Assembly: GCA_030603385.1 (NCBI GenBank)
Contig: JAUVXW010000018.1
Location: forward strand, 8,499 to 72,498
Direction: 5' to 3'
Length of the DNA: 64,000 bases
From: Promethearchaeota archaeon
GTDB lineage: Archaea; Asgardarchaeota; Lokiarchaeia; Sigyniarchaeales; SOKP01
Each line of letters opens with the position of its first letter. Positions within the stretch are counted from its first letter, which is position 1. The notes under the pieces were generated by a model. The model had not been told where the DNA came from, made no database searches, and worked only from the letters and a program-made list of their open reading frames with translations. Both the position numbers and the translations under genes were made by a program. Shown here one piece after another: positions 10,670-63,471 of the stretch.

Positions 10670-10691
10670 ACTGAATTAAAAATATAATCAC

Positions 10692-12191: not shown

Positions 12192-13350
12192 TTAAGACTC
12201 ACATTTTTCATAAATTTGATTTAGCACTACTTGGAAAATGGTAACTTTATTATAAATGTACTTCCTTTATTTCTCCCTGCTGATTCCGCCCAAATTTGAC
12301 CCTTATGTAAGTTAATAATCTCTTTAGAAATAAATAAACCAAGACCAGAACCTTGAATGTCTATAAATTCTAATCCTTCTCCATATCTTTCTATCTTCCC
12401 AAACCTAGTAAATATTCTATCCATTTCCTCTCGAGTTAAACCAATACCAGTATCATTGACAAAAAATTCAACCCAATTTCCTTTTCTATATAATTTTATC
12501 AAAATTTTTCCATTAGGTGGTGTATTTTTTATAGCATTGGATAAAAGATTTAGAACTACTTGTTCAATTCTTACTTTATCAAGGTTTATAATTAATTCAT
12601 TAGGAAGTTCAAGTTTTAAATCTAATTTCCGCCTTTTTATTAAATACATCATTTCATTAGCGCAATCTTGGATTATATCACTTAAATTAGTTAAATCTGT
12701 TATTAATTCAAATTTATCATACTCAATTCTAGTAATGTCAAGTAGGTTGTCAACTAAATATTTTAATCTTGAACCTCCTTTTTCAATCATCTTAATTAAT
12801 TCTTTACTCTCCTCATTAATCTCATCTTTAAATAGTTCTAAAAGTAACTCCGAGGCTCCACAGACAGAAACAAGTGGTGTTTTTAATTCATGAGAAACTC
12901 TTGAGATTAAATCTTTTCTAATTTGATCTAGCTCTTTTAATTTTTGAATCTCCTCTTGTACTAGAAGATCAGCCCTCTTCCGATCTGTTATGTCATGAAG
13001 AATTGCTTGAACTAAGAAATTCTCACCTAATTTGATTAAAGTTGTTTGATAATTAATCCAAACTAGATCTCCATTCTTTTTATAAAACTCTGCATCGAAA
13101 GGAGGTAAAATTTCACCTTTTAGTAATTTTTTAAATCGTTCAAGCATCATAGGTAAATAATTTGGATGAATTGTTACAAGATTCCTATACTCATGACCTA
13201 TTAATTCTTCTATATTATATCCTAATAATTTTTCAGTTGCAGGATTACAATAAATGATTTTACCTTTTTGATCGATAAGAGCTATTGCAAATGGCACAGA
13301 TTCAAATAGGTTACGATATCTACTTTCAGATTCCTTTACTTTTTGCTCCA
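10692..13350 (-). repeat. Tandem duplication of the last PAS plus kinase module (about 10692-11820 versus 12227-13350)
   Basis: Near-identical stretches such as EEIQKLKELDQ.RKDLISRVSHELKTPLV and IFTRFGKIERY.EGLE.IDIQGSGLGLFISKEI; DNA similarity visible. Confidence 0.8.
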
Positions 13351-14944: not shown

Positions 14945-15191
14945 TACTCGAAAGGTTATACAACATTAAGAAACTGTATAACTTTTACTTATTAGACTAA
15001 TGATATATTAAGTATTTATTTTTAATTTAAAAAAAAGTAATATCAAATTATTCTCATGTTCTACATATCATTCTTGATAAATTAAACGAAATCCTCCAAC
15101 ATTCTTTATTTTTATAAATAATAAGAATTAAAAATTTGCTTACGTTTGATTTTATACAAGAATCTGATATTAAATTAATTTTGATGAATAG

Positions 15192-15491
15192 ATGACAGGC
15201 TCGAAAAAAAAATATCAAAAAATATTAGGCTCAGTTCAGAAACCTGTTATTGGGGAAGCAGGTCAAACAGGAACTTGGAGTTCAAAAAAACCAATAATTG
15301 ATTTAAAGAAGTGTATACCCGTTAAATCCGGAAAACCTAGTTGTTTTAATTGCTGGCTATATTGTCCAGAAGCCGTAGTCTCTAGAACAATTCCACCTCA
15401 AATAGATTTTAATTACTGCAAAGGATGTGGTATCTGCATGGAAGAATGCCCAGTTAAAGCAATATCAATGGAGGAGGTGAAAAATGAATGA
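15192..15491 (+). CDS. porD: 2-oxoacid:ferredoxin oxidoreductase delta subunit (2x[4Fe-4S])
   Basis: TGTW...P, CFNCWLYCPE, CKGCGICMEECP. Confidence 0.93.
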   Translation: MTGSKKKYQKILGSVQKPVIGEAGQTGTWSSKKPIIDLKKCIPVKSGKPSCFNCWLYCPEAVVSRTIPPQIDFNYCKGCGICMEECPVKAISMEEVKNE

Positions 15492-16780
15492 CACTTACTG
15501 AAAATGAAGAATCAACTACCGATGAAAATATCATGATTTTGACAGGAAATCACGCTGCTGCACACGCATTTAGACAAGCAAAAGTAGGTGTTGTTTCTGC
15601 ATATCCAATCACACCTCAAAGCCCAGTAGTTGAAAAAATTGCTGAATTTATAGCTGAAGGTAAACTAAAAGCAAGATTTGTAAAAGTTGAATCTGAACAT
15701 AGTGCGATGGCCGTTCTATGTGCTGCCTCTGTTACGGGATCAAGAGTATGTACAGCAACTTCTGCTCATGGTTTAGAATTGATGTATGAAATGTTACCTT
15801 GGGCTTCAGGGAATAGATTACCAATAGTTCTTAATTTAGCGACTAGGAGCTTAGGAGCCCCTTGGTCAGTTTGGACAGACCATCAAGATTTTATAACAAT
15901 TAGAGATGTTGGATGGATTCAATTGTTTTGCGAGAATAATCAAGAAATCTATGATACCAACCTTCAAGCATTTAAGATTGCAGAAGATTCAAGAGTTCTC
16001 CTACCTGTAGCCTGTGCTTACGACGGTTATGTGCTTTCACACACGGCAATGCCAGTAAAGTTAGAAATACAAGAGTTAGTAGATAAATTCTTACCACCTC
16101 TCAATCATCATATTAATTTGTCTGATATTTCTACTGTTAAAGGAATTGATCCGGTAACCACACCTCAAGTTGTTAAGCGAGATGAGGGTGTCGTTCCAGG
16201 ATATTATGAATATAGATATGCATTGCAAAAAGCATTAGAGAATTCAATTGATATCATTAAAGAAGTTCACAATGATTTTGCTAAAAAGTTTGGAAGATCT
16301 TATGGAAATGGTATATATAAAGCAATTCGAACGGATGACGCAGATATTATAATCTTTGGGATGGGATCAGTAGCATCACAATCAAGAGTTGCTGTAGAAA
16401 AACTTAGAACTGAAGGTCTAAAAGTTGGCTTACTGAGTCTGAAATTATTTCGTCCCTACCCTGCAGAGGAACTAAGAGAATTTTTCAAGGATAAAGAAAA
16501 TATTATAGTATTTGATAGGGACATTGGATATGGATATGAAGGTACTTTATCATATGAATTAAAAGCAGCCCTTTACGGATTGAAAAATCGACCAAATATC
16601 AAGGGTTTTATTGTTGGATTAGGTGGAAGAGATGTTAAAACAGAACACATAATAACTGGTGTTTATAAAGCTTTGGATGAATTTAAGAAGGGGATCTTTA
16701 CAAATAAAACAGACTTTTTAGGATTAAGATTAGAAGAATTGGAAGATTATGATGAAGAAACTTATTTTAAAGGAGGATGA
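15488..16780 (+). CDS. porA: 2-oxoacid:ferredoxin oxidoreductase alpha subunit
   Basis: GNHAAA, AYPITPQS, VESEHSA, TATS, DGYVLSH, FRPYP, GLGGRD. Confidence 0.95.
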   Translation: MTLTENEESTTDENIMILTGNHAAAHAFRQAKVGVVSAYPITPQSPVVEKIAEFIAEGKLKARFVKVESEHSAMAVLCAASVTGSRVCTATSAHGLELMYEMLPWASGNRLPIVLNLATRSLGAPWSVWTDHQDFITIRDVGWIQLFCENNQEIYDTNLQAFKIAEDSRVLLPVACAYDGYVLSHTAMPVKLEIQELVDKFLPPLNHHINLSDISTVKGIDPVTTPQVVKRDEGVVPGYYEYRYALQKALENSIDIIKEVHNDFAKKFGRSYGNGIYKAIRTDDADIIIFGMGSVASQSRVAVEKLRTEGLKVGLLSLKLFRPYPAEELREFFKDKENIIVFDRDIGYGYEGTLSYELKAALYGLKNRPNIKGFIVGLGGRDVKTEHIITGVYKALDEFKKGIFTNKTDFLGLRLEELEDYDEETYFKGG

Positions 16781-16786
16781 GAGATA

Positions 16787-17686
16787 ATGGTAAATGTAAT
16801 GGACATTCCTGAGGAAGAATATATTTTTCCTGGCACACGCGCATGTGCGGGTTGTGCTATGGCGTTAATATATAGGATCGCACTAAAAGCTCTTGGTTCT
16901 AATACAATCGTAACAGTTCCTGCTTCTTGTTTAACCGTTCTCCATGGAATGCAAGGTTTTTGTACTACAAAGATTTCTGTTTACCATACTCCATTCGCAA
17001 CTACAGGTGCATCTGCATCTGGTATCTTAGCATCATTAGAGGATAAAGGCTTAGCAGATGAAATTACTGTCCTTGCTTTTGCAGGTGACGGCGGAACAGC
17101 TGATATTGGAATACAAGCTCTAAGTGGTGCTGCAGAAAGAGGCACAAATTTTATTTATGCCTGCTATGATAATGAAGCTTATATGAATACAGGAGTCCAA
17201 AGAAGTGGATCAACGCCAATAGGTGTCCAAACAACAACAACACCAGAAGGAAAATTAGTTCATAAAAAAAATATGCCCAAAATTTTAGAAGCTCACGGGA
17301 TTCCATATGTCGCTACTGCCAATGCCGCATACCCACTTGATTTATATGAAAAATTTAAACGAGCAAAGGATATAAAGGGTCCAAAATATATTCATATATT
17401 ATCGCCTTGTCCTCCTGGTTGGGGATATAACCCAAAAGATACAATGTTAATTGGTAGGCTAGCAAATGAAACAGGATTTTGGCCTCTTTACGAAGTTCTT
17501 GATGGAAAGTTTGAGCTGTCAAATTCAAGTAAAAGATATTTAGACTCCTCGAAAAGAAAACCAATAACAGATTATTTGAAAGCTCAAAAAAGATTTAAAT
17601 CAATCGATGAAAAGATAGTAAAAACTTATGAAAAATATATTGATAATACTTGGAAAGAAATAAAGAGTAGGCTTGAAAGTAGCTAA
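16787..17686 (+). CDS. porB: 2-oxoacid:ferredoxin oxidoreductase beta subunit
   Basis: ACAGC, GDGGTADIG...DNEAYMNTG TPP motif, SPCPPGW. Confidence 0.95.
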   Translation: MVNVMDIPEEEYIFPGTRACAGCAMALIYRIALKALGSNTIVTVPASCLTVLHGMQGFCTTKISVYHTPFATTGASASGILASLEDKGLADEITVLAFAGDGGTADIGIQALSGAAERGTNFIYACYDNEAYMNTGVQRSGSTPIGVQTTTTPEGKLVHKKNMPKILEAHGIPYVATANAAYPLDLYEKFKRAKDIKGPKYIHILSPCPPGWGYNPKDTMLIGRLANETGFWPLYEVLDGKFELSNSSKRYLDSSKRKPITDYLKAQKRFKSIDEKIVKTYEKYIDNTWKEIKSRLESS

Positions 17687-17793
17687 CTCTTTAGACTTAA
17701 TTTGAGAATTTCCTATTTTTGAATTCTTTTTTCTTGTTATTTTGTTATGGAAAAAAATAAAAACTAATTTTAGTTAAGTTAATTAGATATTAT

Positions 17794-18576
17794 ATGCTGA
17801 GAACATTCATATTTGACGATTCTAAATCTAAATGGGTAGAAGAGAAACAACAATTATTATCAGAAGATATTTGTGTATTATTGGATGATGAAGAAGAAAT
17901 TCTATATTTATGGAGGGGCTTAAAAACAAGTAAAAAAAGGTTTAAGAAGGGATATAAACAATTAAAAGAACTAATTTCTAATTTCCCTGATTTAAACCTC
18001 CAATTTATGATGGTAACAAAAAATTTCCCAATCCAAGTTCAAGAGAAGCTTGATTCCATGTTAGAAACAGCTAAGAAAGAGAGGAGTGGGATTTTACTAT
18101 TTAACAGATTTATTACTATACGGATTTATTTTATTTTTTTATTATGTGCAATTATTTTACCAATCGTTTCTTTATTAAATTTGAGTTCCTCCTTGCTATG
18201 GACGATTTCTAATGGAAATTATGAAGTAAATAATAATACCTTCCGATTATGGATATACTACTCGGAAATTTTAACACTTATAACTTTAATTTGCTTTATC
18301 ATTAATTTGGTTATTGGAATTATTGAATTTGAAAATCAGGTAATTGTTTTTTCTATTGTTGGGTTATTAATTTGTGTTGGATTATTTATATATTTAAATT
18401 TTGACATTTATTTATTTCTATTTCAAGAAGGATCAACCTTAACTAATTATTTAATCTCAAGAAAGGATATTTTGTACTTTATTATAGTAAACTTAATCTC
18501 AATTTTAATTTTTGAAATCCCAAATACAATTAAATTAATATCATTTCTGAAAACATACCGAAAATTTATTTTTTAG
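17794..18576 (+). CDS. Gelsolin-like N-terminal domain fused to four predicted transmembrane helices
   Basis: LLSEDICVLLDDEEEILYLWRGLKTS followed by a long helix (gelsolin-fold pattern); four hydrophobic segments from about aa 110. Confidence 0.6.
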   Translation: MLRTFIFDDSKSKWVEEKQQLLSEDICVLLDDEEEILYLWRGLKTSKKRFKKGYKQLKELISNFPDLNLQFMMVTKNFPIQVQEKLDSMLETAKKERSGILLFNRFITIRIYFIFLLCAIILPIVSLLNLSSSLLWTISNGNYEVNNNTFRLWIYYSEILTLITLICFIINLVIGIIEFENQVIVFSIVGLLICVGLFIYLNFDIYLFLFQEGSTLTNYLISRKDILYFIIVNLISILIFEIPNTIKLISFLKTYRKFIF

Positions 18577-35886: not shown

Positions 35887-37215
35887 TTAATAGAATTTTA
35901 AATATTCATAAGCCTTACTTGGAGTTTGAAAACAATATTTAATTTCTTGGAATTCTTTTCTAAATTCTACGACTTCGTTTCTTATTTTTTTAGGATCTAT
36001 CTTATCAATAAGTAGTTTTTTAATTAGCTCTGCAATATCAATCATTTCACTTTTACTCATGCCAAGTCTGGTGATTTCAGATGTCCCGATTCTTAATCCT
36101 CCAGGATTTTGATAATGTCTTCCTTCAGCAATATCATATGGTAAAAGATTTCGATTGAGAATGATGTTTGCTTTTTCTAATAATTTTTCAATATCTCCTC
36201 CTAATCCAATTGTTTTCTCGAATTCTGAAATATCAACAACAATTTGGTGTGACTCTGTAAAACCTTTATGTTCCATTAATACTTTAAATCCCCGTTCATA
36301 TAATGCTTGTCCAAGACCTTTAGCATTCTCAATAACATTCTTATGGTACTCTTTTCCAAATTCTAACATTTCTGCTATAGCAATCGCTAATCCCGCTACA
36401 TTATGAAGATGGTGATTAGATAATAATGCTGGAAAAGCACAAGATTTAAATGTATCAATTAAATCTTCCCTATTCGATACTAAAGCTCCATGTTGAGGTC
36501 CAGGAAGTGTTTTATGAGTGCTCATTGTCATAGCATCTGCTCCTTCTCTTAAAGGATCTTGAAAATATCCAGAACCTATTAAACCAGATACATGAGCTGC
36601 ATCATACCCAACATAGGCTCCAATCTCTTTTGCAACATCACCAAGCTCTTTAACAGGGTGTGGGAATAAAAATACTGAACCACCAAACAATACCAATTCT
36701 GGTTCAAATTCTCTTATCTTCTTCGCAGAAGCATCAATATCTAAATTCATTTCATCATTGTCAAATGCTAAATATTCAATATCTAAACCCCTTGTCGTTC
36801 CTGCCGTCCCAAAAATTTCTCGACCACTTTTTGCAAATCTTGGACCATGTGAAATATGTCCTCCTCTAACAATTGACATACAACACATTTTACCGTTATT
36901 ATCTGATGTGAATGCATTATACATCACTAAATTTGCTACAACTCCAGAGATCGGGCGTACATCGCAAAATTTTGCGCGCCAAAACTCTCTTCCGAGCTCC
37001 ATGCAAATATCCTCAACTTGATCGATATACTTACAACCTGCATAAACTCTTTGGCCTGACCATCCTTCGGCATATCGATGTGAGAAATCACTAGCACAAG
37101 CTTCATCTACAGCAGGACTAGTTATATTTTCCGAGGCAATTAAAGGAATTGATTTTTTAAACCAGTCGTGATGCTCCATTAAAATTTCTCGGATTTCAGT
37201 TACTTTTTTCCTCAA
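35887..37215 (-). CDS. glyA: Serine hydroxymethyltransferase (archaeal type)
   Basis: LIASEN, RYAEG, GGHISH, YDAAHV.G, STHKTLPGPQ. Confidence 0.96.
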   Translation of the reverse strand: MRKKVTEIREILMEHHDWFKKSIPLIASENITSPAVDEACASDFSHRYAEGWSGQRVYAGCKYIDQVEDICMELGREFWRAKFCDVRPISGVVANLVMYNAFTSDNNGKMCCMSIVRGGHISHGPRFAKSGREIFGTAGTTRGLDIEYLAFDNDEMNLDIDASAKKIREFEPELVLFGGSVFLFPHPVKELGDVAKEIGAYVGYDAAHVSGLIGSGYFQDPLREGADAMTMSTHKTLPGPQHGALVSNREDLIDTFKSCAFPALLSNHHLHNVAGLAIAIAEMLEFGKEYHKNVIENAKGLGQALYERGFKVLMEHKGFTESHQIVVDISEFEKTIGLGGDIEKLLEKANIILNRNLLPYDIAEGRHYQNPGGLRIGTSEITRLGMSKSEMIDIAELIKKLLIDKIDPKKIRNEVVEFRKEFQEIKYCFQTPSKAYEYLKFY

Positions 37216-53181: not shown

Positions 53182-55059
53182 ATGCAGATCATTGATCAAG
53201 AAAATTTTGACAAATTAAGAGCATTAAATAATGAAAATGTTATAAAGATTGTAAATGAATTTGTCGAATTGTGTAGACCTTCTAAGGTTACTGTAATAAC
53301 AGATTCAATAGAAGATATAGAATATTGCAGACAAACAGCAATTAAGATTGGCGAGGAAGCGAAACTAGAGATTGAGGGACATACAATCCATTATGATGGA
53401 TTCTTCTCAATGTCAAATCACGACCAAGCAAGGGATAAGACAAATACAAAGGTATTAATTCCAAAAGGACAATACCATCCTCCTGCCATAAACACAGTTG
53501 AGAGAGAAGAAGGGCTTAAGGAAATTTTGGAAATTATGAAAGGATGTATGGAAGGTAATGAATGCCTAATCCGGTTTTTTTGCTTAGGCCCTAAAAATTC
53601 AAAGTTTTCAATCCTTGCCCTTCAGCTTACAGATTCTTTTTATGTAGCTCATTCAGAAGATCTCCTCTATAGAGCAGGTTATGAAGAATTTAAAAAATTG
53701 AATGGATCTGATGAATTCTTCTATTTTATTCATTCATCTGGAGAATTAATTGGAGATCCTCCAGTAACAAAAAACCTTGATAAGAGAAGAATTTATGTGG
53801 ATCTACAAGAAGGGCGTGTATTATCTGTTAATAATCAATATGCTGGAAATAGTCTTGGATTAAAAAAATTAGCTTTAAGATTGGCAATATATAAATCCAA
53901 TAATGAGGATTGGTTAACAGAACATTATTTTATTCTGGGTGTACACCCTAAAGGAAAAAATAGAGTTTCATATTTCTGTGGAGCCTTTCCAAGTGCTTGT
54001 GGTAAGACCAGTACAGCCATGTTGCCTGGTCAGACGATAGTGGGTGATGATATTGCCTATCTTCGCGTATGGGATGATGGATATGCTCATGCTGTAAACA
54101 TTGAGAGGGGAATTTTTGGTATTATCAAAGATGTTAATCCTAAAAATGACCCTGTTATTTTTGAAGCGTTAACAACTCCAAGAGAAACTATTTTTAGTAA
54201 TGTATTGGTAACTGAAGGTTCGCCTTATTGGATTGGTGATGGAAGATCAATCCCAGCAAAAGGTATTAATTTTTCAGGAGAATGGTATGTAGGTAGAATT
54301 GATGATGATGGAAAGGAAATCCCCCTTGCTCACCCTAATGCTCGATACACAATTCGGATTGAAGAATTAAGTAATGCTGATGAAAATTTGCACAATCCGG
54401 ATGGTGTTCCTATATCTGGAATATTTTATGGCGGACGGGACAGTGATACATTGCCACCTATCCTTGAAAGCCTAAGTTGGGAACATGGAGTTTTCTTAGG
54501 TGCTTCAATTGAATCAGAAACAACCTCTGCTACCTTAGGTGCTGAGGGTGTAAGACAAATAAACCCTATGTCTAACCATGATTTCTTAGTTATAAGTATG
54601 AGACAGTACCTCAAAAATCATTTCGACTTTGGTAAAAGGCTAAAAAGTTGCCCAAAAGTATTTGCAACAAATTATTTTCTCAAAGATAAGGCTGGAAAGT
54701 ATTTAAATGGAATTTTAGATAAACTTTGCTGGGTAATTTGGGCAGAAGGTCGAGTACAAGATGATTTTAAGGGTATAAAAACACCAATTGGCTATATACC
54801 TATATATACAGACTTAGAAATTTTATTTGAACAATATCTTGATATAGATTATAAAGAAGCAGATTATATTGAACAATTCTCTATTCGGACTAAAAAGCTT
54901 TTAGAAAAATTAGAGCGCATTGAATCCATGTATAAAAAAGAAGAAGATGTTCCACAATTTTTTTGGGATATGCTTAATGATCAGAGAAAAAGTTTGATCA
55001 ACCTAAAAAATGAGTATAATATGGAAGAAATTTCGCCTTTACTATTAAAAAAGTTATAA
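53182..55059 (+). CDS. pckG: Phosphoenolpyruvate carboxykinase (GTP)
   Basis: DQAR, YAGNSLGLKK, WLTEH, AFPSACGKTS, GDDIA, AHPNARY, YGGRD. Confidence 0.96.
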   Translation: MQIIDQENFDKLRALNNENVIKIVNEFVELCRPSKVTVITDSIEDIEYCRQTAIKIGEEAKLEIEGHTIHYDGFFSMSNHDQARDKTNTKVLIPKGQYHPPAINTVEREEGLKEILEIMKGCMEGNECLIRFFCLGPKNSKFSILALQLTDSFYVAHSEDLLYRAGYEEFKKLNGSDEFFYFIHSSGELIGDPPVTKNLDKRRIYVDLQEGRVLSVNNQYAGNSLGLKKLALRLAIYKSNNEDWLTEHYFILGVHPKGKNRVSYFCGAFPSACGKTSTAMLPGQTIVGDDIAYLRVWDDGYAHAVNIERGIFGIIKDVNPKNDPVIFEALTTPRETIFSNVLVTEGSPYWIGDGRSIPAKGINFSGEWYVGRIDDDGKEIPLAHPNARYTIRIEELSNADENLHNPDGVPISGIFYGGRDSDTLPPILESLSWEHGVFLGASIESETTSATLGAEGVRQINPMSNHDFLVISMRQYLKNHFDFGKRLKSCPKVFATNYFLKDKAGKYLNGILDKLCWVIWAEGRVQDDFKGIKTPIGYIPIYTDLEILFEQYLDIDYKEADYIEQFSIRTKKLLEKLERIESMYKKEEDVPQFFWDMLNDQRKSLINLKNEYNMEEISPLLLKKL

Positions 55060-55074: not shown

Positions 55075-55770
55075 TTAGGCTAAATACTTTAATCCACTTC
55101 TTACTTTATAGGTTTTTCTAACTCTATCCACCTCAATAAATCTCTTTATTTCAAGATTGTTTAGTAAATCCCTCATCTCAACACGGTCTTTCTTTAGTTC
55201 ATCTCCTAATCCTTGAATATCAGTTTCATGCGTTTTTAATATTTGTATAAGTGATGAATATTCTTCATAAATTACATTAACTAGATGCGTTATTGACTCT
55301 TTTATGTTCAATCCCGTTTTTGTACTTGTTGGAAAGATTTTACTTTTATCCGATAAATAATTTTGGGAATGAATTATTTCTGGAGGTCGAGCACCCTCTA
55401 TATCCTGCTTATTAGCTAGAAAAACAACAGGGGTGTTAGAAGGTAATAATTTTCTTATAGAATTTAATATTACAATTGCACTGTCATCCTTTTCAGGAGC
55501 TGCAGCATCAAAAATAAATATAATTCCATCTGAACCACTCGTGACAATATTCCTCATAATTGAAAATCTAAGAAGTCCTGGTGTGCCAAATAGATAACAA
55601 TCAAAACCATTTAATTTTATTGACCCTAAATCCATCCCAACTGTATAATACTTTTCATCTTTGCCTTTCGCTTCTACATTCAGTGCATTCTTATCTAAAG
55701 CTTTTATGTAACTTGATTTACCCGACTGTAATGGACCAGATACCAAAATTTTTATTATCGTTTCACCAAT
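55075..55770 (-). CDS. MglA-like small GTPase with C-terminal winged-helix-like domain
   Basis: IIKILVSGPLQSGKSS, TVGMDLG, LFGTPGL, ANKQD, ST; frame extends upstream of TTG 55746 to ATT 55770. Confidence 0.85.
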   Translation of the reverse strand: MGETIIKILVSGPLQSGKSSYIKALDKNALNVEAKGKDEKYYTVGMDLGSIKLNGFDCYLFGTPGLLRFSIMRNIVTSGSDGIIFIFDAAAPEKDDSAIVILNSIRKLLPSNTPVVFLANKQDIEGARPPEIIHSQNYLSDKSKIFPTSTKTGLNIKESITHLVNVIYEEYSSLIQILKTHETDIQGLGDELKKDRVEMRDLLNNLEIKRFIEVDRVRKTYKVRSGLKYLA

Positions 55771-55998
55771 TTTTTAATAATGCAAATGTAACTTAGATTT
55801 TACTTTTTTATTTATCTATTTAAAAGGATAATATACTTGGATAATATATTTTATTTATTAAATAGTTAATTTGTGGTTTAAATATTAATATCTTAACTTT
55901 CATTTCAAGTTTTTGCAAAAAATCAAATAGATATTTTGATGTATAAAGTGATTTCTAATTAATTTTGAAAAAGATCTTTTCCTATTTATTATTCAATT

Positions 55999-56195
55999 TT
56001 GACTTAATTTGACAGAAAAGTCTATCATTTAAGTATAAACTTGACAGTTTTATGATTTAATGAATTCAATAAAATTAGCAAAATCAATAAGATTCTCATA
56101 AAAAATTGATCTATAAGTCACTTTTTCCGAAAGAAATCAATATTATAATGTCTAAAATAGTCGATGTGCAAAAGCTTTATATAGAAATCTGTCGA
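55999..56195 (+). promoter_or_regulatory. hdr-met operon promoter: BRE/TATA-like element and periodic TTGAC-N6-GTCAA-like sites
   Basis: caaaagctttatata at ~56169-56183; TTGACAGAAAAGTCTA at 56009, TTGACAG at 56041, TTGATCTATAAGTCAC at 56106. Confidence 0.5.
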
Positions 56196-56309
56196 ATAAT
56201 ATCATTAAAAAATTCTATTTTTCAGATTTAATAGTAATTTTCTTATTGATTAGAATATTTCTAACAAATGGATTTTATTAGATAATTTAAAACAAAAAAT
56301 TGAAGAAAA

Positions 56310-59300
56310 ATGACAAATAACAATGTTTTAATTATTGGTGCGGGTATTAGTGGAATAGAAGCAGCATTAACTCTTGGCGAACAAGGATATCGGGTAATAC
56401 TGGTGGAAAAAACTTCTTCTGTTGGAGGTCGAATGGCACAACTCGATAAAACATTTCCAACTTTGGATTGCAGTATATGTATTCTTGCTCCTAAAATGGT
56501 AGAAGTGTCTAGACATCCTAATGTTGAGCTCCTTGCTTACTCAGAAGTAAAAGAAGTATCTGGTCAAGCCGGAAATTTCAATGTAAAAGTACTTAAGAAA
56601 TCTAGATATGTCGATTGGGATAAATGCACGGGATGTGGAGCCTGTAGTGAAAAATGCCCTATGAAAAAAATACCTAGTGAATTTGAAGAGGGTATGGGAA
56701 ATAGGACGAGTATATATATTCCCTTTCCTCAAGCAGTTCCACGAAAAGCTGTTATTGATGCGGAAACATGCTTATATCTAACGAAAAATGCCTGTAAACT
56801 CTGTGAAAAAGAGTGTGAGGCTGGAGCTATTAATTGGGATATGCAGGATGAAATTGTCGAATATAACGTAGCATCTATCATTTGTGCAACTGGAATTGAC
56901 CTATTGGATCCAAGTGTTCTTGATCGTTATCACTATGGGGAATATCCTAATGTTATTACAGCTATGCAATATGAACGGTTACTGAGTGCATCGGGACCTA
57001 CCGAAGGTGAATTATTACGTCCTTCGGATAAAGAACATGCACATAATATAGGATTTATAAGTTGTGTTGGATCTAGAAATGAGGATCTCTGTTCATATTG
57101 TTCAAAATTTTGTTGTATGTATCAAACTAAAGAGGGAGTTGTCACTAGGGAACATGCTCCTGATACAAGTGTAACAATATTTTTTAACGATATAAGGGTG
57201 ATCGGAAAAAACCAAGAGGAATTTATTGAAAGAGCTAAAGATGAGTATGGTCTAATATATTACAGAGGAATTCCTGGAGATATTCGTGAAAATCCAGAAA
57301 ACCATAATCTTTATGTTAAACATGCTAATCTTGATACTGGAGATGTAGAGGTTAGTGAATTTGACCTTATAGTCCTTGCAAATGCAGTAATTCCGCGAAA
57401 GGATGCAGATGATCTAGCTAAAATATTAGGAATTGAGCAAAATGAGTTTGGTTTTTTCAAAACCAAAGATTCTACTGAAGACCTCCGTTCTACTTGTGAT
57501 GGGATCTATGTAACTGGTTCATGTCAGTCCCCTGACGATATTGCCAATTCAGTAGCAAAAGCAGGCGGAGCTGCAGCATTAGCTGCTACTCATGCAATTC
57601 CTTTGAGTGGGGAAGAAACAAAAGTAGAACTCCCACCTCTTAAACCTGTGAGCCCAAAGGATAATCCTCGTATAGGTGTATTCATCTGCCGTTGTGGTAT
57701 TAATATTGCTGGATATATGGATGTTCCAGCATTAGTAGGTTATGCAAAAACTCTTCCGAATGTAGTATTTTCTATGGAAAATAAATATAGTTGCTCTCAA
57801 TTGACTCAAGATATTATTAAAGAAAAAATTGAAGAACTAAATCTAAATAGAGTCCTAGTTGCAGCATGTACCCCCAGAACTCATGAGCCATTATTCCAAA
57901 AAACAATTAGAGAAGCTGGCTTAAATGAGTATTTATTCAATTTTGTATCTATACGTGAATTAGATTCTTGGGTGCATATGCATGATAACCCAAAAGCTAC
58001 TGATAAAGCTAAGGATCTTATCAGAATGGGAGTAGCTCGTGTTAGAGCACAAAAAGCTGAGTTTAAAATTAGGGGCGATGTCGTTCCAGAAGCTTTAGTT
58101 GTAGGAGGAGGTATTGCTGGTATGAGTGCTGCTATAGAAATCGCTCGTAAGGGTTTTAAGGTACATTTGATTGAGAAGGATGATAAACTAGGAGGACAGT
58201 TAAATCAAATATATAAGATTAATTTTGACAGAATAGATTCCAGAGAATTCTTAGATCAAAAATTAAAAGAATTTAACGATCAGAAAAATATTATTGTTTA
58301 TTTAAACTCTGAAGTTGTTGATGTAAAAGGTTCGATAGGAGATTTTAAAGTTAAAGTTAAGGACAATAATGAAGTCAAAGATATTAGTTTGAATGTGGGT
58401 GCCATTATTGCTGCTACAGGTGCCTATGAGTATAAACCTGAAGGTTGGTATAATTGGGGCAAAAACAATAATGTATTAACTCAACTAGAATTATCTAAAA
58501 AGCTCAAAAATAATGAATTAGAAGATGGTCAAACTTTTGTGTTTATTCAGTGTGTCGGGTCGAGACAACCCGAAGATGGGAATGGTGTAACTTATTGTTC
58601 ATTAATTTGTTGTTCAGAATCGATTAGACATGCGTTGTATGTAAAAGAAACATATCCAAACTCAAATATTTATGTTTTATATAGAGACATTCGAGTAGGT
58701 ACTGATGAAGAACCTTATTACTGGAAAGCCCGTGAAAATGTGAACTATATAAGATTTAATGAATATCCTACAGTTGAAACTGTGAATGGCAAGTTAATGG
58801 TAAATGTTAAAGATATTTTAACTCAAATTGACCTTTCTATTGAAGCGGACAAAGTAGTCCTTTCTACACCATTAATACCTCATGATACTAAAAAATTGGG
58901 TGAAATGATTAAATGTGCTCGAGACCAAAATGGATTTTTTTTAGAAGCTCATATTAAACTGAGGCCTGTCGACTTTGCCACTGATGGTATTTATCTAGCA
59001 GGAACTTGCCATGGTCCAAAAGGAATTGCAGATTCAATTTCACAAGGACGTGGTGCTGCTGCTCATGCTTTGATTCCATTAATCTCAGGCGAAGTGGAAA
59101 ATGAACCTTTAGTATCAGTTGTGGATCCTGCCTTATGCATTGCCTGCCAGAAATGTGAAGAAGTATGTAATTTTGGAGCAATAGGAGTGAACTTTGATAA
59201 TGATGTATTAGTTTCAGAATCAAACCCTCTCTTATGTAAAGGCTGCGGAGATTGTTCAGCAGCGTGTCCAGCAGGGGCCATTACTATGAGTCATTTTTCA

Positions 59301-59795
59301 GATAATCAAATTTACCCAATGATTCGTGAAGCTGTTCAAGGTGAATACGTGGATGAAAGACCTAGGATAGTGGCTTTTTTATGTAACTGGTGTAGTTATG
59401 CAGGGGCAGATACTTGTGGTGTTAGTCGCTTTCAATATCCAACAAATATTCGACCGATAAGAGTTATGTGTACTGGTAGAATACCAAAACGGTTTATTTT
59501 GCAAGCTTTTTTGGAAGGTGCTGATGGTGTTTTTATTGGGGGGTGCCACATTGGTGATTGCCATTATTTAGAAGGCAATTATGATATGTTACAACGTTAT
59601 AATGAACTTCATGAGATACTGGATAGAGTTGGAATTAATCCAGATCGATATCGTCTTGAATGGATATCTGCTAGTGAAGGTAAGCGATTTTCAGAAGTGG
59701 TAACTGAATTTACTAATAAAATTAAAGAATTAGGTCCTTTACCTAATAGAGGCGATAAAATTGAAAAAAAAGAAAAAGTTAAGGAGGCTGCTTAA
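56310..59795 (+). CDS. hdrA: Heterodisulfide reductase subunit A-like protein (two FAD modules) fused to MvhD
   Basis: GAGISG...LDKTFPTLDC, ferredoxin insert, RIGVFICRCG, VVGGGIAG, FLEAHIKLRP, C-terminal ferredoxin, then CNWCSYAGAD...MCTGR...GCHIGDCHY (MvhD). Confidence 0.95.
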   Translation: MTNNNVLIIGAGISGIEAALTLGEQGYRVILVEKTSSVGGRMAQLDKTFPTLDCSICILAPKMVEVSRHPNVELLAYSEVKEVSGQAGNFNVKVLKKSRYVDWDKCTGCGACSEKCPMKKIPSEFEEGMGNRTSIYIPFPQAVPRKAVIDAETCLYLTKNACKLCEKECEAGAINWDMQDEIVEYNVASIICATGIDLLDPSVLDRYHYGEYPNVITAMQYERLLSASGPTEGELLRPSDKEHAHNIGFISCVGSRNEDLCSYCSKFCCMYQTKEGVVTREHAPDTSVTIFFNDIRVIGKNQEEFIERAKDEYGLIYYRGIPGDIRENPENHNLYVKHANLDTGDVEVSEFDLIVLANAVIPRKDADDLAKILGIEQNEFGFFKTKDSTEDLRSTCDGIYVTGSCQSPDDIANSVAKAGGAAALAATHAIPLSGEETKVELPPLKPVSPKDNPRIGVFICRCGINIAGYMDVPALVGYAKTLPNVVFSMENKYSCSQLTQDIIKEKIEELNLNRVLVAACTPRTHEPLFQKTIREAGLNEYLFNFVSIRELDSWVHMHDNPKATDKAKDLIRMGVARVRAQKAEFKIRGDVVPEALVVGGGIAGMSAAIEIARKGFKVHLIEKDDKLGGQLNQIYKINFDRIDSREFLDQKLKEFNDQKNIIVYLNSEVVDVKGSIGDFKVKVKDNNEVKDISLNVGAIIAATGAYEYKPEGWYNWGKNNNVLTQLELSKKLKNNELEDGQTFVFIQCVGSRQPEDGNGVTYCSLICCSESIRHALYVKETYPNSNIYVLYRDIRVGTDEEPYYWKARENVNYIRFNEYPTVETVNGKLMVNVKDILTQIDLSIEADKVVLSTPLIPHDTKKLGEMIKCARDQNGFFLEAHIKLRPVDFATDGIYLAGTCHGPKGIADSISQGRGAAAHALIPLISGEVENEPLVSVVDPALCIACQKCEEVCNFGAIGVNFDNDVLVSESNPLLCKGCGDCSAACPAGAITMSHFSDNQIYPMIREAVQGEYVDERPRIVAFLCNWCSYAGADTCGVSRFQYPTNIRPIRVMCTGRIPKRFILQAFLEGADGVFIGGCHIGDCHYLEGNYDMLQRYNELHEILDRVGINPDRYRLEWISASEGKRFSEVVTEFTNKIKELGPLPNRGDKIEKKEKVKEAA

Positions 59796-59797
59796 AC

Positions 59798-60328
59798 ATG
59801 GTAGAGATGATTAAAAAGAATGCAAATGAGTTAGATAGAAATTTTCGCTATGAAATTAGTGCGAAGGTTGGAGCTAAATCACTTCTAAAATGCATTCAAT
59901 GCGGAGTTTGTAGTTCAGGGTGTACTGTAACAGAATATGTTGATATGCAACCTCATAGAGTGGTAGCATCTTGTCTTTTAGGTCTAAAAAATGAAGTACT
60001 CTCAAGTCAAGCAATCTGGACATGTTCTTTATGTCATAGATGTACTGAAAGATGCCCTAAAAATGTTGATTATTCATTCATTCTTGCTCTCTTACGAAAT
60101 ATGGCAGTTAAGGAAGGAAGGATTCCCAAAGAATATTCTGGGACTGTAGTAACAATCTATAATAATGGATATGTAGTACCATATACAGGTGGATTAAAAG
60201 TTAATATTGATAGAAGACGGACTAGAATGGGGTTACCAGAACTCATACCCCCTGACCTAGATGAAATAAGGTTTATTATAGAAGAGACGGGATTGGGAGA
60301 TCTCGCAAAACAAGAAGAAGGTGTTTAA
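59798..60328 (+). CDS. hdrC: Heterodisulfide reductase subunit C
   Basis: CIQCGVCSSGC and WTCSLCHRCTERCP. Confidence 0.93.
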   Translation: MVEMIKKNANELDRNFRYEISAKVGAKSLLKCIQCGVCSSGCTVTEYVDMQPHRVVASCLLGLKNEVLSSQAIWTCSLCHRCTERCPKNVDYSFILALLRNMAVKEGRIPKEYSGTVVTIYNNGYVVPYTGGLKVNIDRRRTRMGLPELIPPDLDEIRFIIEETGLGDLAKQEEGV

Positions 60329-60330
60329 AA

Positions 60331-61212
60331 ATGGAATATGCGCTATTTTTAGGATGTACAATACCTTTAAAGTTACCTCATTTAGAGAAAGCTTTTAGAG
60401 ATGTTGCAAGCATTTTAAATGTGAAATTAAAGGAAATGGAAGGAGTAAGTTGTTGTCCTGAGCCAGTATCTTTACAATCTTTAAATATAGATACTTGGAT
60501 GACTTTGGGAGCAAGAAATTTAGCAATTGCAGAGAAAATGGGTTTAAATATTATGACAATCTGTTCTGGTTGTTATGAAACCTTAAAGACAGTAAGTGTG
60601 TTATTGAAAGAAGATGAGGAATATTTGGCAAAAATTAATGAAATTCTAAAGAAAATTAATTATAAATACACCGGTAAAACTAAAGTATTTCATTTTGTTG
60701 AATTATTCAGCCAACCAGAATGGTTAGAAAAAATAAAAAATATACTAGTAAAACCTCTAGATGATTTGAATCTTGCTGTGCATTATGGTTGTCATCTTAT
60801 AAGACCGAGTAAGATTATGCAGTTTGATCACCCCGAGAAACCTGAAAAAATTGATATCATACTACAAGCACTCGGAGCTAAAACAATTGAGTTTGCAACC
60901 AAATTAGAATGTTGTGGCTATTGTGCGAGATTACAAGATGAAATTGGGGAAAAATTGGTTGAGGATAAGATGACAGAACTATGTGAACTTGAAGAAGAAG
61001 TTGATGCATTAATTGCTGTATGCCCTGCTTGCATCACTCAATATGATAGAAAGGAAAAAATAATTTCTCGTAAATCGGGTAAGGATCTAGATATTCCTGT
61101 CTTATATTTAGCTGAAATCATGGCATATGCATTAGGAGTAGATCTTCAAGATCTCAGTCTGAAGAACAGAAGTGTTAAGCCATATAAGTTAATTAATAAA
61201 TTAACAACCTAA
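60331..61212 (+). CDS. hdrB: Heterodisulfide reductase subunit B
   Basis: FLGC, CCPEP, ARNLA.AE, CSGC, HYGCH, CCG, CPAC. Confidence 0.94.
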   Translation: MEYALFLGCTIPLKLPHLEKAFRDVASILNVKLKEMEGVSCCPEPVSLQSLNIDTWMTLGARNLAIAEKMGLNIMTICSGCYETLKTVSVLLKEDEEYLAKINEILKKINYKYTGKTKVFHFVELFSQPEWLEKIKNILVKPLDDLNLAVHYGCHLIRPSKIMQFDHPEKPEKIDIILQALGAKTIEFATKLECCGYCARLQDEIGEKLVEDKMTELCELEEEVDALIAVCPACITQYDRKEKIISRKSGKDLDIPVLYLAEIMAYALGVDLQDLSLKNRSVKPYKLINKLTT

Positions 61213-61284
61213 GTAGTATGATTTTTTCAAGCACATATATTATAAATAATAATAAAAAAAAGGAAAAAAAAGGAGTTTTGTAAT

Positions 61285-61980
61285 ATGATAATTACACAAT
61301 TAAAAGATTTAAACCAAATATACGATCTGATAAAACCATATAACAAGATTTTGATTGCCGGTTGCGACGGATGTTGTCAACCTCCTCGATCGCTTAACGA
61401 AGCAAAGGTTCTTGGACAACTTTTAGAATTAAAATCGAGAACAGAAAATAAAGATTTAAAATGGAAAGCAATTACAGTCCTACGGCAATGTGATGATAGG
61501 ATAACGGCTACAACATGCCGTCCTTATATAGAAGAATTCGATGCAATTTTAACCTTAGCATGCGGACTTGGGGTAGTAATGATGAATAAGGTCCTCCCCG
61601 AAATTCTAACCTTTCCAGCTCAAAATAGCATGTTTGGAGGCGTTCAAAACACAGGTGAGAATAATTTTATTGAATATTGTGAAACCTGTGGTGATTGTAT
61701 TATCGGAGAAACTGGTGGTGTATGTCCACGTGCAGGATGTGCTAAACATCTGAGTAATGGACCTTGTGGAGGTATGGTTGAAGGAATGTGTGAAGTTGGA
61801 GGTTATACGATTCCTTGTGCATGGGTACGTATTTGGGCTCGATTAAAAGAATTTAACAGGCTTGATCTCTTTAAGAAGTATAGAGGTCCAAGAGATTTTC
61901 GAACATCTACTAGTCCTGGATATATGACAGTCTATAAAGATTATACAAATATTAAAGAAGAAAAAGAGGGGAAAGAATAA
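61285..61980 (+). CDS. metV: Methylenetetrahydrofolate reductase Fe-S subunit MetV
   Basis: GCDGC, RQCD, LACG.G, C..CGDC....TGGVCP...CAK.L.NGPCGG...G.CE.....CAW. Confidence 0.9.
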   Translation: MIITQLKDLNQIYDLIKPYNKILIAGCDGCCQPPRSLNEAKVLGQLLELKSRTENKDLKWKAITVLRQCDDRITATTCRPYIEEFDAILTLACGLGVVMMNKVLPEILTFPAQNSMFGGVQNTGENNFIEYCETCGDCIIGETGGVCPRAGCAKHLSNGPCGGMVEGMCEVGGYTIPCAWVRIWARLKEFNRLDLFKKYRGPRDFRTSTSPGYMTVYKDYTNIKEEKEGKE

Positions 61981-62934
61981 ATGACAAAAAGACCGGCATT
62001 TAGCAATCTAATGAAAGCTGTCAGTGATGGTCATTTCGTGTTTACAGGAGAACTCGAGCCAAAGAAAATCTTAAATCTAGATGAGATTATACATTCTGCT
62101 AAAGCAATGAAAAAAACAGGTAGAATAGTAGCCGCCAATGTAACAGACGGTCCCCAAGGTGATGCCTATATGTCATCAATGGTACCAAGTTATATGGTTC
62201 AAGAAAAAGCAAATATTGAAGCTGTGTGGCAAGTAACTATAAGAGACAGAAATCGTGTTGCTCTCTTTGGTGATGTTATCGCAGGTGCAGTTCTTGGGTT
62301 AAAAAATATTCTTACACTTACAGGAGATCATACAGCCTTAGGAGATCATAAAAAAGCTCGTCCAGTATATGATATAGATAGTACTCAGTTTGCTGAAATG
62401 CTTTCTATGATGATAGATGATGGGACTGATTATGAAGGTAATGAAATTCAAGGTGGAAAAATAGAGATGAACTTTGGATGCGTTGCAAACCCTAACAGTG
62501 ACCCTCGTGAACCAGAAATCCTTAAGGTAGGCCGTAAGGTGGAACTAGGTATCGACTTCATCCAGACTCAAACTGCTTTTGATATTGATCAAGCAAAAGA
62601 ATTTTTAAAAGAATTAGAACAATTCAATATACCTGTTCTATTGGGCCTCTTTCCTCTTAAATCTCATGGAATTGCTTGGTATTTTGATAATTTTATTCCA
62701 GGTGTCTCGGTTCCAAAGGATCTCCTTAAATCTTTAAAAACTGCAGAAAAGGAGAATAAAGGAAACAAGCCGGGAAAATATGCAGCTATAGATAAAATCA
62801 ATCTTGAATTCTTTAAACCATTTATCGAGGAAATTAAAAAAACCACCAAAGCTGCGGGTATACATTGTATGGCAGTGGAATACGAGAGACTTTTCGCGCC
62901 CTTACTAGGGGATTTTCCGGAATATGTGAAGTAA
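61981..62934 (+). CDS. metF: Methylenetetrahydrofolate reductase MetF
   Basis: TGELEP, ANVTD, RDRNR.AL, LTGD, DFIQTQ. Confidence 0.92.
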   Translation: MTKRPAFSNLMKAVSDGHFVFTGELEPKKILNLDEIIHSAKAMKKTGRIVAANVTDGPQGDAYMSSMVPSYMVQEKANIEAVWQVTIRDRNRVALFGDVIAGAVLGLKNILTLTGDHTALGDHKKARPVYDIDSTQFAEMLSMMIDDGTDYEGNEIQGGKIEMNFGCVANPNSDPREPEILKVGRKVELGIDFIQTQTAFDIDQAKEFLKELEQFNIPVLLGLFPLKSHGIAWYFDNFIPGVSVPKDLLKSLKTAEKENKGNKPGKYAAIDKINLEFFKPFIEEIKKTTKAAGIHCMAVEYERLFAPLLGDFPEYVK

Positions 62935-62997: not shown

Positions 62998-63471
62998 ATG
63001 AGGAAAAAAATGAAAAATCTTGACGAGAAAGATAAAAAAATAATTGAAATGTTATTTGAAAATTCAAGAAGACCATATCATGAAATTGCAGATAAGGTCG
63101 GATTATCTGAATCAACTGTCAGAAAAAGAGTAATTAAGCTACAAGAAGGTGGAATTATTGAAAAATTCACTATTAAGATTTGTCGTGAAGATGAGAGATG
63201 TATTTATGCTTTCCTTACACTCATACCTAAAAATGAATCGGAAATTAAAGATTTGTTAAGAGAAACTGTAATTCTTCCACAATGTGAGGAAGTATATAAA
63301 TTGGATGGTAGATGTGGAATTTTAATAAAAGTTAATGTACCTGATACTAATGAATTAGATGCAATATTGGAAATGTTTCGTTCTCGAACTGATATTGAAA
63401 GTGTTGAAAGGGTATGCATCGTCTTAAAGCCTATTAAAACAGTTTCTCAAAATTCAACTAGTAATTTATGA
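62998..63471 (+). CDS. Lrp/AsnC family transcriptional regulator
   Basis: LDEKDKKII..L.ENSR.PY.EIA..VGLSESTVRKRV. Confidence 0.93.
   Translation: MRKKMKNLDEKDKKIIEMLFENSRRPYHEIADKVGLSESTVRKRVIKLQEGGIIEKFTIKICREDERCIYAFLTLIPKNESEIKDLLRETVILPQCEEVYKLDGRCGILIKVNVPDTNELDAILEMFRSRTDIESVERVCIVLKPIKTVSQNSTSNL

Follow-up and report, generated by a model that had tools for sequence, protein, structure and literature searches.

In a 64,000-nt stretch of DNA from a Promethearchaeota archaeon (contig JAUVXW010000018.1 of assembly GCA_030603385.1; hereafter the window, whose full-length numbering provides all window coordinates, with its genome designated G000), we examined a cluster of five genes encoding heterodisulfide reductase (Hdr) subunits, an MvhD domain and both subunits of a MetVF-type reductase. 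Our favored interpretation, to which we assign a probability of about 0.6, is that the cluster would encode a methylene-tetrahydropterin reductase, coupled to Hdr and linked to ferredoxin, that takes the place of Mer, the F420-dependent methylene-tetrahydromethanopterin (methylene-H4MPT) reductase. This interpretation builds on observed gene identities and cofactor ligands, the conserved and recurrent linkage of the genes, their phylogeny and the absence of Mer. Systems of this kind are already known, namely, the clusters of Moorella, Sporomusa and Candidatus (Ca.) Syntrophoarchaeum, and no prior description of Hdr-linked MetVF in Lokiarchaeia or other Asgard archaea was found in the literature searched, subscription papers being outside that search.

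Genes were assigned by Pfam and NCBIfam profile searches of the window proteins. Open reading frames and profiles bear out the initial annotation, made from the sequence alone, of five contiguous genes in the order hdrAA::mvhD-hdrC-hdrB-metV-metF, all on the + strand, with successive gaps of 2, 2, 72 and 0 nt. The features of the cluster are as follows.

56310-59795, + strand: hdrAA::mvhD, 1161 aa (NF040770 HdrA2, 1184 bits against a cut-off of 1100; FlpD, E 1.9e-52)
56310-57644, + strand: HdrA module 1 of this chain (aa 1-445), from the HMMER alignment to 5ODC_A
57645-59339, + strand: HdrA module 2 (aa 446-1010), from the alignment to 8RVU_a and the self-alignment of the modules
59358-59753, + strand: MvhD [2Fe-2S] domain (aa 1017-1148), fused to the HdrA C-terminus (PF02662, E 1.9e-52)
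59798-60328, + strand: hdrC, 176 aa, 2x[4Fe-4S] ferredoxin-like (Fer4_8 and Fer4_17, dicluster ferredoxin; TIGR03290, 97.7 bits)
60331-61212, + strand: hdrB, 293 aa, with two CCG domains (PF02754 twice; TIGR03288, 270 bits)
61213-61284, + strand: hdrB-metV spacer, 72 nt, with a T6 run, an AT-rich stretch and AGGAG
61285-61980, + strand: metV, 231 aa, FeS/Zn subunit of MetVF-type reductases (PF12225, E 2.3e-28)
61981-62934, + strand: metF, 317 aa, flavin TIM-barrel catalytic subunit of the methylenetetrahydrofolate reductase (MTHFR) family (PF02219, E 2.3e-23)

The 1161-aa chain contains a tandem double HdrA whose halves align with each other at E 1e-24. Module 1 aligns with residues 145-573 of 5ODC_A (467 bits with HMMER) and consists of a thioredoxin reductase (TrxR)-like FAD domain with an inserted 2x[4Fe-4S] ferredoxin domain, lacking the N-terminal domain and the C-terminal ferredoxin domain of HdrA. 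It retains the motif DCSIC, including C54 as well as C57, the equivalent of Cys197 of solved HdrA, which in the methanogen HdrA dimer ligates the N-terminal cluster of the partner chain (PMC9012536). Also retained are E222 and K274, equivalent to the E356/K409 pair by which HdrA flavins are classed in the literature as bifurcating or not (PMC9430772, citing Appel et al. 2021), a signature that correlates with bifurcation and would be suggestive here, short of proof of bifurcating activity. In module 2, a second TrxR-like FAD domain is flanked by an N-terminal cluster domain (C460, C462, C495, C520) and a C-terminal 2x[4Fe-4S] domain; DCSIC and the inserted ferredoxin are missing, and in the alignment to 8RVU_a, Ser and Arg replace the E/K pair. 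Because the two modules carry opposite domain sets, the chain looks like a single-chain, asymmetric counterpart of the HdrA homodimer, with one complete electron path predicted. All 34 ligand cysteines, the DCSIC motif and the module-1 E/K pair are invariant in each of 21 metVF-linked fusions from relatives (21/21), and the cysteines predict seven [4Fe-4S] clusters, two FAD and one [2Fe-2S] cluster.

The remaining subunits appear similarly intact. The MvhD domain matches the MvhD chains of 5ODC, 8RVU and 7BKB with 166-173 bits, and HdrB aligns over its full length with 8RVU_b (239 bits), with all ten cysteines of both CCG motifs present. Along the predicted electron path, the cluster inventory is the same as in the methanogen complexes MvhADG-HdrABC and FdhAB-MvhD-HdrABC (5ODC, 8RVU, 7BKB); in contrast to these, one asymmetric fused chain takes the place of the HdrA homodimer, and the gene cluster includes neither a hydrogenase nor a formate dehydrogenase, their place in the neighborhood being taken by MetVF. 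The lack of hydrogenase subunits had been pointed out in the initial annotation, and indeed, in the Pfam/NCBIfam annotation of the neighborhood, no [NiFe]-hydrogenase genes (mvhA/mvhG) adjoin the cluster; the [NiFe]-hydrogenase large subunits of G000 are located on contigs C20 and C31, beside other Hdr paralogs. MetV contains 12 cysteines that are invariant in the alignment. A sequence search of the PDB identified no solved relative of MetV, and an AlphaFold2 model (pLDDT 77.7) yielded, in a Foldseek search of the PDB, only generic alpha/beta matches resembling periplasmic-binding proteins or a LacI lobe (TM ~0.3). MetF matches solved MTHFRs in the PDB weakly (25 bits).

With respect to protein content, the cluster has the same six modules as the Hdr-type ('type IV') MetFV-HdrABC-MvhD enzyme of Moorella thermoacetica and Sporomusa ovata, and its HdrA chain, like that of the acetogen enzyme, is a tandem with two TrxR-like FAD domains, in which the second unit lacks the inserted ferredoxin. 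HdrA of S. ovata consists of an extra N-terminal TrxR-like domain, which holds the only E/K signature, followed by a complete HdrA-like unit without the inserted ferredoxin, with five [4Fe-4S] clusters predicted (PMC9430772). As in S. ovata, the E/K signature in the window is kept by the first module only, whereas module 1 of the window also keeps its 2x[4Fe-4S] insert, hence seven predicted [4Fe-4S] clusters against five. Moorella HdrA carries an extra GltD-like FeS/FAD/NAD(P)H insertion (PMC9430772), and an insertion comprising Fer4_20 and a full Pyr_redox_2 domain is present in the metVF-adjacent HdrA of about 1500 aa encoded in a planctomycete (L135) and in a member of Dehalococcoidales (L147). 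By contrast, Pfam searches detected no Fer4_20/second Pyr_redox_2 insertion in the window HdrA or in the 1156-aa HdrA of a Bathyarchaeia locus (L117), and both keep the ferredoxin-type insert. The missing NAD(P)H insertion combined with the retained ferredoxin insert predicts that the archaeal version is ferredoxin-linked and NAD(P)H-independent; since S. ovata also lacks the GltD-like domain, that domain marks the Moorella subtype only. Further differences from the acetogen enzymes are the fusion of MvhD to HdrA, the gene order in the window and a genomic context indicative of H4MPT rather than folate.

This context is provided by Mtd, Mch, two Ftr, CdhC/ACS (CODH/ACS), FolD and RFAP synthase, the committed enzyme of H4MPT biosynthesis, all of which are encoded in G000. 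A true Mer was not found in this genome, in which the best-scoring proteins reach 99-121 bits with the Mer models (cut-offs 276 and 349). We considered and rejected a divergent true Mer, given that the five luciferase-like candidates fall far below both cut-offs and three of them fit other F420-dependent LLM subfamilies better; the other two have Mer as a weak top match. Across our sample of the phylum (301 genomes), true Mer was detected in 0/68 genomes of f1, the family of the window's genome, and in 0/7 genomes of f2, and Mtd is present in 63/70 f1 genomes. Elsewhere in Asgard, true Mer is common (f10, 5/5; f14, 17/19; f15, 3/3; f17, 4/4; f21, 6/6; f9, 42/76). The contrast with the classical archaeal Mer drawn in the initial annotation is therefore stronger than claimed, with Mer missing family-wide and the other searched H4MPT enzymes present. 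Because the H4MPT branch of the family lacks only Mer among the enzymes searched, the putative complex most likely replaces this enzyme; it would catalyze the same step with an unrelated fold and cofactor, Mer being a luciferase-like TIM barrel that uses F420.

A connection of archaeal MetVF with the Mer step is suggested by genomic neighborhoods in other Asgard families. In nine Asgard genomes (G007, G038, G012, G023, G034, G297, G047, G064 and G070), Mer is located 0.3-4 kb from a stand-alone metVF, and in locus L073 of family f20 (G025:C12, locus 8950-18335), the genes are ordered metV-metF-hdrAA::mvhD-hdrC-hdrB-mer-mer on one strand, both mer genes being true; together, these arrangements tie archaeal MetVF to the Mer step. 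Lokiarchaeota metagenome-assembled genomes (MAGs) have previously been reported to lack a typical mer, and a distant COG2141 homolog was proposed instead, with MTHFR and Hdr unmentioned (Yin et al. 2020, PMC8027215). For ANME-1 and Syntrophoarchaeum, it has been proposed that MetF takes the place of Mer, and Asgard sequences fall within the ANME-1-type MetF clade (Chadwick et al. 2022, PMC9012536).

The same data bear on the possibility that the cluster encodes a genuine methylene-tetrahydrofolate reductase, as in acetogens, with Hdr supplying or accepting electrons. Under this scenario, which we consider unlikely albeit with a real minority chance, methyl-tetrahydrofolate (methyl-THF) would be made from serine/glycine-derived methylene-THF (GlyA, FolD) for methionine or methyl-group metabolism, or methyl groups would be oxidized, and the Mer step would be covered by a COG2141 paralog or by the stand-alone MetVF of the same genome described below. 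Consistent with a folate enzyme, MetF belongs to PF02219 and its best NCBIfam match is a folate-type bifunctional MTHFR model; FolD is present, DHPS-like genes exceed the cut-off both in G000 and among the genus (8/11 genomes), the sole glyA of the genome lies within the window, and the two Mer-like luciferase-family paralogs could take over the Mer step. However, neither Fhs (formyl-THF synthetase) nor HPPK was found in G000, HPPK being detected in 0/11 genomes, so that no complete folate C1 branch is apparent, and the survey of fhs and folD versus mer and mtd suggested in the initial annotation thus gives FolD and Mtd without Fhs or Mer in this genome. RFAP synthase together with Ftr, Mch, Mtd and CODH/ACS points to an H4MPT pathway, Mer adjoins archaeal metVF in other Asgard families, and MetF falls in a clade whose ANME-1 and Syntrophoarchaeum members are proposed to use H4MPT (PMC9012536). 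With Mer absent and the H4MPT branch otherwise present, replacement of Mer is likelier than a folate pathway.

We next consider the linkage between the Hdr and MetVF genes. MetF relatives were detected in 185 of the 301 sampled genomes. Orthologs of the window MetF, with at least 66% identity, are limited to f1 except for one match in family f24; MetF is present in 67/68 f1 genomes, mostly in two copies each, and the window protein of this Lokiarchaeion is 85-98% identical to proteins of many Promethearchaeota/Lokiarchaeota MAGs, with contigs named Loki_b31 and Loki_b32 among them. A tandem HdrA::MvhD lies upstream of metVF in every one of the orthologous f1 loci fetched with wide flanks, in two arrangements. 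Arrangement A (13/20 loci), to which the window belongs, is hdrAA::mvhD-hdrC-hdrB-metV-metF, and arrangement B (7/20) is hdrC-hdrB-hdrAA::mvhD(x1-2)-metV-metF, the acetogen order, with metV starting 17-39 nt after the hdrAA::mvhD stop. The two arrangements use different HdrA paralogs, the metV-adjacent copy of B being orthologous to the C20 copy beside mvh in G000; thus, the linkage outlasted an exchange of the Hdr module. Module 2 has lost the E/K pair in arrangement A, whereas arrangement B and L073 retain it.

Beyond the family, a search of named genomes with the MetV alignment showed metVF directly adjoining a tandem HdrA/MvhD in Bathyarchaeia (L117), Ca. Syntrophoarchaeum (L129), Asgard family f20 (L073) and Methanomassiliicoccaceae, and the same linkage in the bacterial groups Dehalococcoidia, Anaerolineae, Planctomycetota, Desulfobacterota and Acidobacteriota. 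The synteny check suggested in the initial annotation therefore had a positive outcome, both in f1 (20/20 loci) and in other archaeal and bacterial phyla. The exchange of Hdr paralogs, the 17-39-nt spacing in arrangement B and the recurrence across lineages are the stronger indications of functional coupling.

For phylogenetic analysis, we computed a 95-row MetV+MetF tree (IQ-TREE quick search, SH-aLRT support, midpoint root) and a 60-row tree of HdrA module 2, both without Moorella and Sporomusa sequences. A branch with support 100 splits the MetV+MetF tree into a bacterial and an archaeal clade, and the HdrA tree agrees. The bacterial clade contains many Hdr-linked members, and the only archaeal sequence nested within it, as reported by Poudel et al. 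2018, is that of Methanomassiliicoccaceae; in their view, the complex arose in Bacteria and was acquired by Archaea once, in Methanomassiliicoccus (PMC6085437). The archaeal clade consists of a stand-alone group (support 96), which includes a second MetVF of G000, encoded on contig C22, and has zero directly Hdr-linked members, and a second group (support 97), within which Hdr linkage recurs. The latter unites the Lokiarchaeial clade of the window (19 rows, support 100) with Bathyarchaeia, Ca. Syntrophoarchaeum, Ca. Alkanophaga, Thorarchaeota and L073, in keeping with the Bathyarchaeota and Lokiarchaeota names borne by the nearest 50%-identity cluster representatives. The window HdrAA groups with the metVF-linked HdrAA chains from L117 (Bathyarchaeia) and L073 (support 99), a grouping that matches the MetVF tree and thus indicates that HdrA and MetVF were co-inherited in the archaeal lineage. 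The label 'acetogen-type', which the initial annotation had attached to the cluster, accordingly applies to the gene content, but not to the affiliation of MetVF and HdrA, which belong to a clade separate from the bacterial sequences (Moorella and Sporomusa themselves being unsampled), nor to the NAD(P)H module, given the lack of the GltD-like insertion.

A close counterpart is the ANME-1/Ca. Syntrophoarchaeum/Bathyarchaeia-type archaeal MetF(V), a proposed substitute for Mer; the window MetVF belongs to this archaeal clade (support 97), and G000 lacks Mer and yet encodes Ftr, Mch, Mtd and CODH/ACS. In Ca. Syntrophoarchaeum, as in the window, HdrA/MvhD adjoin metVF; MetFV-HdrA-MvhD clusters were described in this organism along with the double HdrA of Moorella (PMC9012536). 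Unlike this type, the window cluster has the full set, including hdrC and hdrB, and is a family-specific paralog that exists beside the second, stand-alone MetVF. Mcr-based metabolism is not known for the organism of the window, although no search aimed at it was made; in the ANME-1 genomes of Chadwick et al., in contrast to the window, MetF is not clustered with Hdr (PMC9012536).

The linkage and phylogeny are among the grounds on which we find it improbable that Hdr and MetVF are mere neighbors rather than parts of one enzyme. If that were the case, hdrAA-hdrC-hdrB would be one of the approximately 20 Hdr paralog sets of the genome serving another donor or acceptor, and MetVF would be a stand-alone ferredoxin-dependent reductase of the Clostridium ljungdahlii type with its own promoter. 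The genome does encode many Hdr paralogs with other partners, flank synteny is generally high in the family, and the stand-alone MetVF clade shows that MetVF can exist without an adjacent Hdr. Moreover, the genes form two tightly coupled groups, hdrAA-hdrC-hdrB with 2-nt gaps and metV-metF with a 0-nt gap, separated by the AT-rich 72-nt spacer, which is conserved in arrangement A and contains a T6 run at 61222-61227 right after hdrB and AGGAG about 10 nt before the metV start. In archaea, transcription usually terminates at oligo-T tracts. Almost every arrangement-A ortholog has a T5-8 run no more than about 20 nt from the hdrB stop, against a T-run background of about 0.2 of the 25-nt windows in the upstream intergenic region, so that partial termination or a separate metVF promoter is possible; the spacer may be an attenuator, or a terminator combined with an internal metVF promoter. 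The description of the locus as an operon thus holds for the contiguity and common strand of the genes, but a single operon is uncertain because of this T-run.

Against mere adjacency, the linkage survives the exchange of Hdr paralogs and three gene orders, metV follows mvhD by 17-39 nt in arrangement B, the linkage recurs in distant archaeal and bacterial phyla, and the HdrA and MetVF trees agree on the archaeal linked group. In addition, a GCDGC...VLRQCD signature is common to archaeal MetVs with HdrA adjacent or within a few kb and is missing in stand-alone MetVs, and in S. ovata, pulldowns demonstrated contacts of MetVF with HdrA/HdrB/MvhD (PMC9430772). Structure prediction weighs on neither side: a complex of MetV, MetF and HdrA residues 930-1161, spanning the C-terminal ferredoxin and MvhD, scored 0.58, compared to 0.55 for a control with MetF replaced. 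Finally, recent lateral import of an NADH-dependent bacterial acetogen operon of the Moorella kind, for which one might cite the gene content shared with Moorella and Sporomusa (PMC9430772) and the bacterial origin inferred for the archaeal Met complex by Poudel et al. 2018 (PMC6085437), is highly improbable and was rejected on both the MetV+MetF and the HdrA trees, drawn up without Moorella and Sporomusa, in which branches with support 100 separate the archaeal clades from the bacterial one, the more so as the chain has no NAD(P)H/GltD-like domain, the GC content of the cluster equals that of the surrounding window, and the cluster is family-wide.

We therefore return to the Hdr-coupled replacement of Mer. 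In the proposed mechanism, MetF, the flavin TIM barrel, would interconvert methylene- and methyl-tetrahydropterin, most likely H4MPT, and MetV, through its FeS/Zn centers, would wire MetF to the HdrA pseudo-heterodimer and MvhD, together with HdrC and HdrB, in a soluble enzyme; complex formation, the use of H4MPT, the reaction direction, the docking site of MetV and bifurcation are all predictions. Pulldowns in S. ovata recovered HdrA, but not HdrB, with MetV, and MetF with MvhD (PMC9430772), which by analogy suggests that MetVF probably docks at the MvhD/C-terminal ferredoxin end. Module 1 would supply the FAD site that bears the bifurcating signature, along with the insert that interacts with ferredoxin, and module 2 the N-terminal cluster, completed by Cys57 of module 1, and the C-terminal ferredoxin domain toward MvhD, whereas MvhD, as in the solved Mvh-Hdr and Fdh-Hdr complexes, would be the adaptor for a third-party dehydrogenase. 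The MvhD path, the HdrC-HdrB path with its intact thiol/disulfide-type site and the ferredoxin insert would meet at the module-1 FAD. Flavin-based confurcation or bifurcation, with NAD(P)H playing no part, would link the methylene/methyl-pterin step with ferredoxin and probably also with a thiol/disulfide couple. The redox potential of the H4MPT couple is about -320 mV. With H4MPT, reduced ferredoxin and a dithiol would confurcate onto methylene-H4MPT, or, in reverse, electrons from methyl-H4MPT would be bifurcated. The wiring of MetVF to a flavin-based bifurcation or confurcation module, already put forward in the initial annotation, would fit the linkage, the co-inheritance, the ligands and the E/K signature alike.

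Several considerations weigh against this interpretation. It is drawn from the genes, from which interaction, expression and activity are predicted for the cluster. The potential of the H4MPT couple would make the energetics unlike those of the acetogen case; FolD and a DHPS-like gene are present, so a folate-type carrier is possible; and, to our knowledge, the MetF-family enzymes characterized so far use folate. The completeness of G000 is 94%. The Mer gap could equally be filled by the stand-alone MetVF on C22, and, following Yin et al., the two distant luciferase-like COG2141 paralogs could be what actually substitutes for Mer. Many Asgard families hold both Mer and MetVF, hence these enzymes are no simple alternatives. 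The T-run after hdrB implies that metVF may be partly transcribed separately. Lastly, in a control, the flanks of the cluster (thermosome, PEPCK and GTPase genes upstream and Lrp downstream) were also found to be often conserved in f1, so that the synteny within the family is partly inherited.

A more specific elaboration of the favored interpretation can be formulated, which we regard as speculative and, taken as a whole, unlikely to hold in all its parts. Under this scheme, the Mer step of f1 would be performed by an F420- and NAD(P)H-independent confurcating enzyme, with reduced ferredoxin and some dithiol jointly reducing methylene-H4MPT via HdrCB, HdrA module 1, MvhD and MetVF, as the mirror image of the Mvh-Hdr reaction, whose genes lie elsewhere in the genome. 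As a recycled electron carrier, the Asgard 'heterodisulfide' would form the link between H2 or fermentative ferredoxin and the methyl branch, and the reverse reaction, oxidation of methyl groups, would regenerate low-potential ferredoxin. Archaeal Hdr-MetVF would be ancestral to the group of Lokiarchaeia, Bathyarchaeia and Syntrophoarchaeum and separate from its bacterial counterpart.

The identity of the enzyme at this step matters because Lokiarchaeia are central to models of eukaryote origin built on hydrogen and C1 energy metabolism. Published reconstructions present the H4MPT Wood-Ljungdahl pathway as complete, or the typical mer as missing, with only a distant homolog (PMC8027215). The family-wide presence of the cluster, Mer in none of 68 family genomes and the adjacency of Mer and MetVF elsewhere make the Hdr-linked MetVF a concrete, testable candidate for the mer gap. 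If this candidate is correct, electron bookkeeping would move from F420 to ferredoxin and a thiol/disulfide couple, and the predicted ATP yields, H2 thresholds and feasible pathway direction would change. Hdr-type MetVF also has an archaeal lineage of its own, without the NAD(P)H module, which extends the view presented by Poudel et al. 2018 (PMC6085437).

The following other features of the window surround the cluster or were invoked in its initial annotation.

62998-63471, + strand: Lrp/AsnC-family transcriptional regulator, 157 aa (PF13404 and PF01037)
55747-56309: AT-rich intergenic region, 563 bp, between the divergent small GTPase gene and hdrA
55075-55746, - strand: small Ras/MglA-like GTPase gene, divergent from hdrA
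53182-55059: pckG, directly before the GTPase gene (Pfam/NCBIfam)
36022-37206, - strand: glyA, 19 kb from the cluster
15566-16264: por alpha-type gene, 40 kb from the cluster

The 563-bp region is the presumed promoter region of the cluster, and the Ras/MglA-like GTPase gene beyond it is held at the same position in many relatives, in arrangements A and B alike. Directly 3' of metF and on the same strand, the Lrp/AsnC gene is found in 30/30 loci examined; it probably belongs to the unit and is a candidate regulator of the cluster. Like the tandem nature of HdrA, this gene goes unmentioned in the initial annotation of the cluster. Its best NCBIfam match is of the LysM type, below the cut-off, and, the family being usually amino-acid sensing, its presence hints at amino-acid control of the cluster. 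The genes glyA, por and pckG, on which the initial annotation based its suggestion of amino-acid-fueled C1 metabolism, are present as stated, but two of them are distant from the cluster (19 kb for glyA, 40 kb for por) and pckG lies in a flank that is syntenic across the family, so they lend the suggestion weak support.

The stand-alone metVF of G000 is located at C22:16184-17759 (L014:10179-11778), with no Hdr nearby, and its products are 41% (MetV) and 47% (MetF) identical to those of the window pair. In relatives, the equivalent stand-alone metVF is 8-18 kb downstream of the Hdr-linked copy on the same contig; contig C46 stops 1 kb past metF and is thus probably a neighbor of C22. Four genomes of the f1 genus g2 (G019, G030, G117 and G159) encode stand-alone MetVF only, and Mtd is missing in 3/4 of them; a folate route in g2 was considered and dropped, with Fhs in 0/4 of these genomes. 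Genus g2 may have lost the H4MPT branch along with the Hdr-linked MetVF, an event in one lineage that is only suggestive. A third, very divergent metVF pair, with MetF 26-27% identical, is present in the Atabeyarchaeia-like family f15 (L071:14964-16540, G012) and also in L072 and L085; it faces the first pair in convergent orientation, and a true Mer gene separates the two.

Further observations concern the diversity of Hdr and Met proteins. Adding to the Hdr repertoire of G000, contig C26 at 44.7-62 kb (L015) contains four tandem HdrA-HdrA fusions (1011-1031 aa) in a row, together with separate MvhD genes, two HdrC::HdrB fusions (418-432 aa) and an FrhB-like F420-interacting subunit. In the Bathyarchaeia locus L117:3774-5744, a gene for an AMP-forming acetyl-CoA synthetase is directly upstream of hdrAA::mvhD-metV-metF. 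The closest bacterial MetVs, from Dehalococcoidales/Dehalococcoidia (46-47% identity for L118, L119 and L120, and 40% for L126), are each preceded by an MvhD-like gene and have no adjacent MetF, so MetV may have another partner there. Among the cluster representatives, P0134 (1038 aa) combines an N-terminal MetF domain with an uncharacterized extension of about 750 aa, and P0123 (541 aa), with MetF at residues 239-530, is possibly a MetV::MetF fusion.

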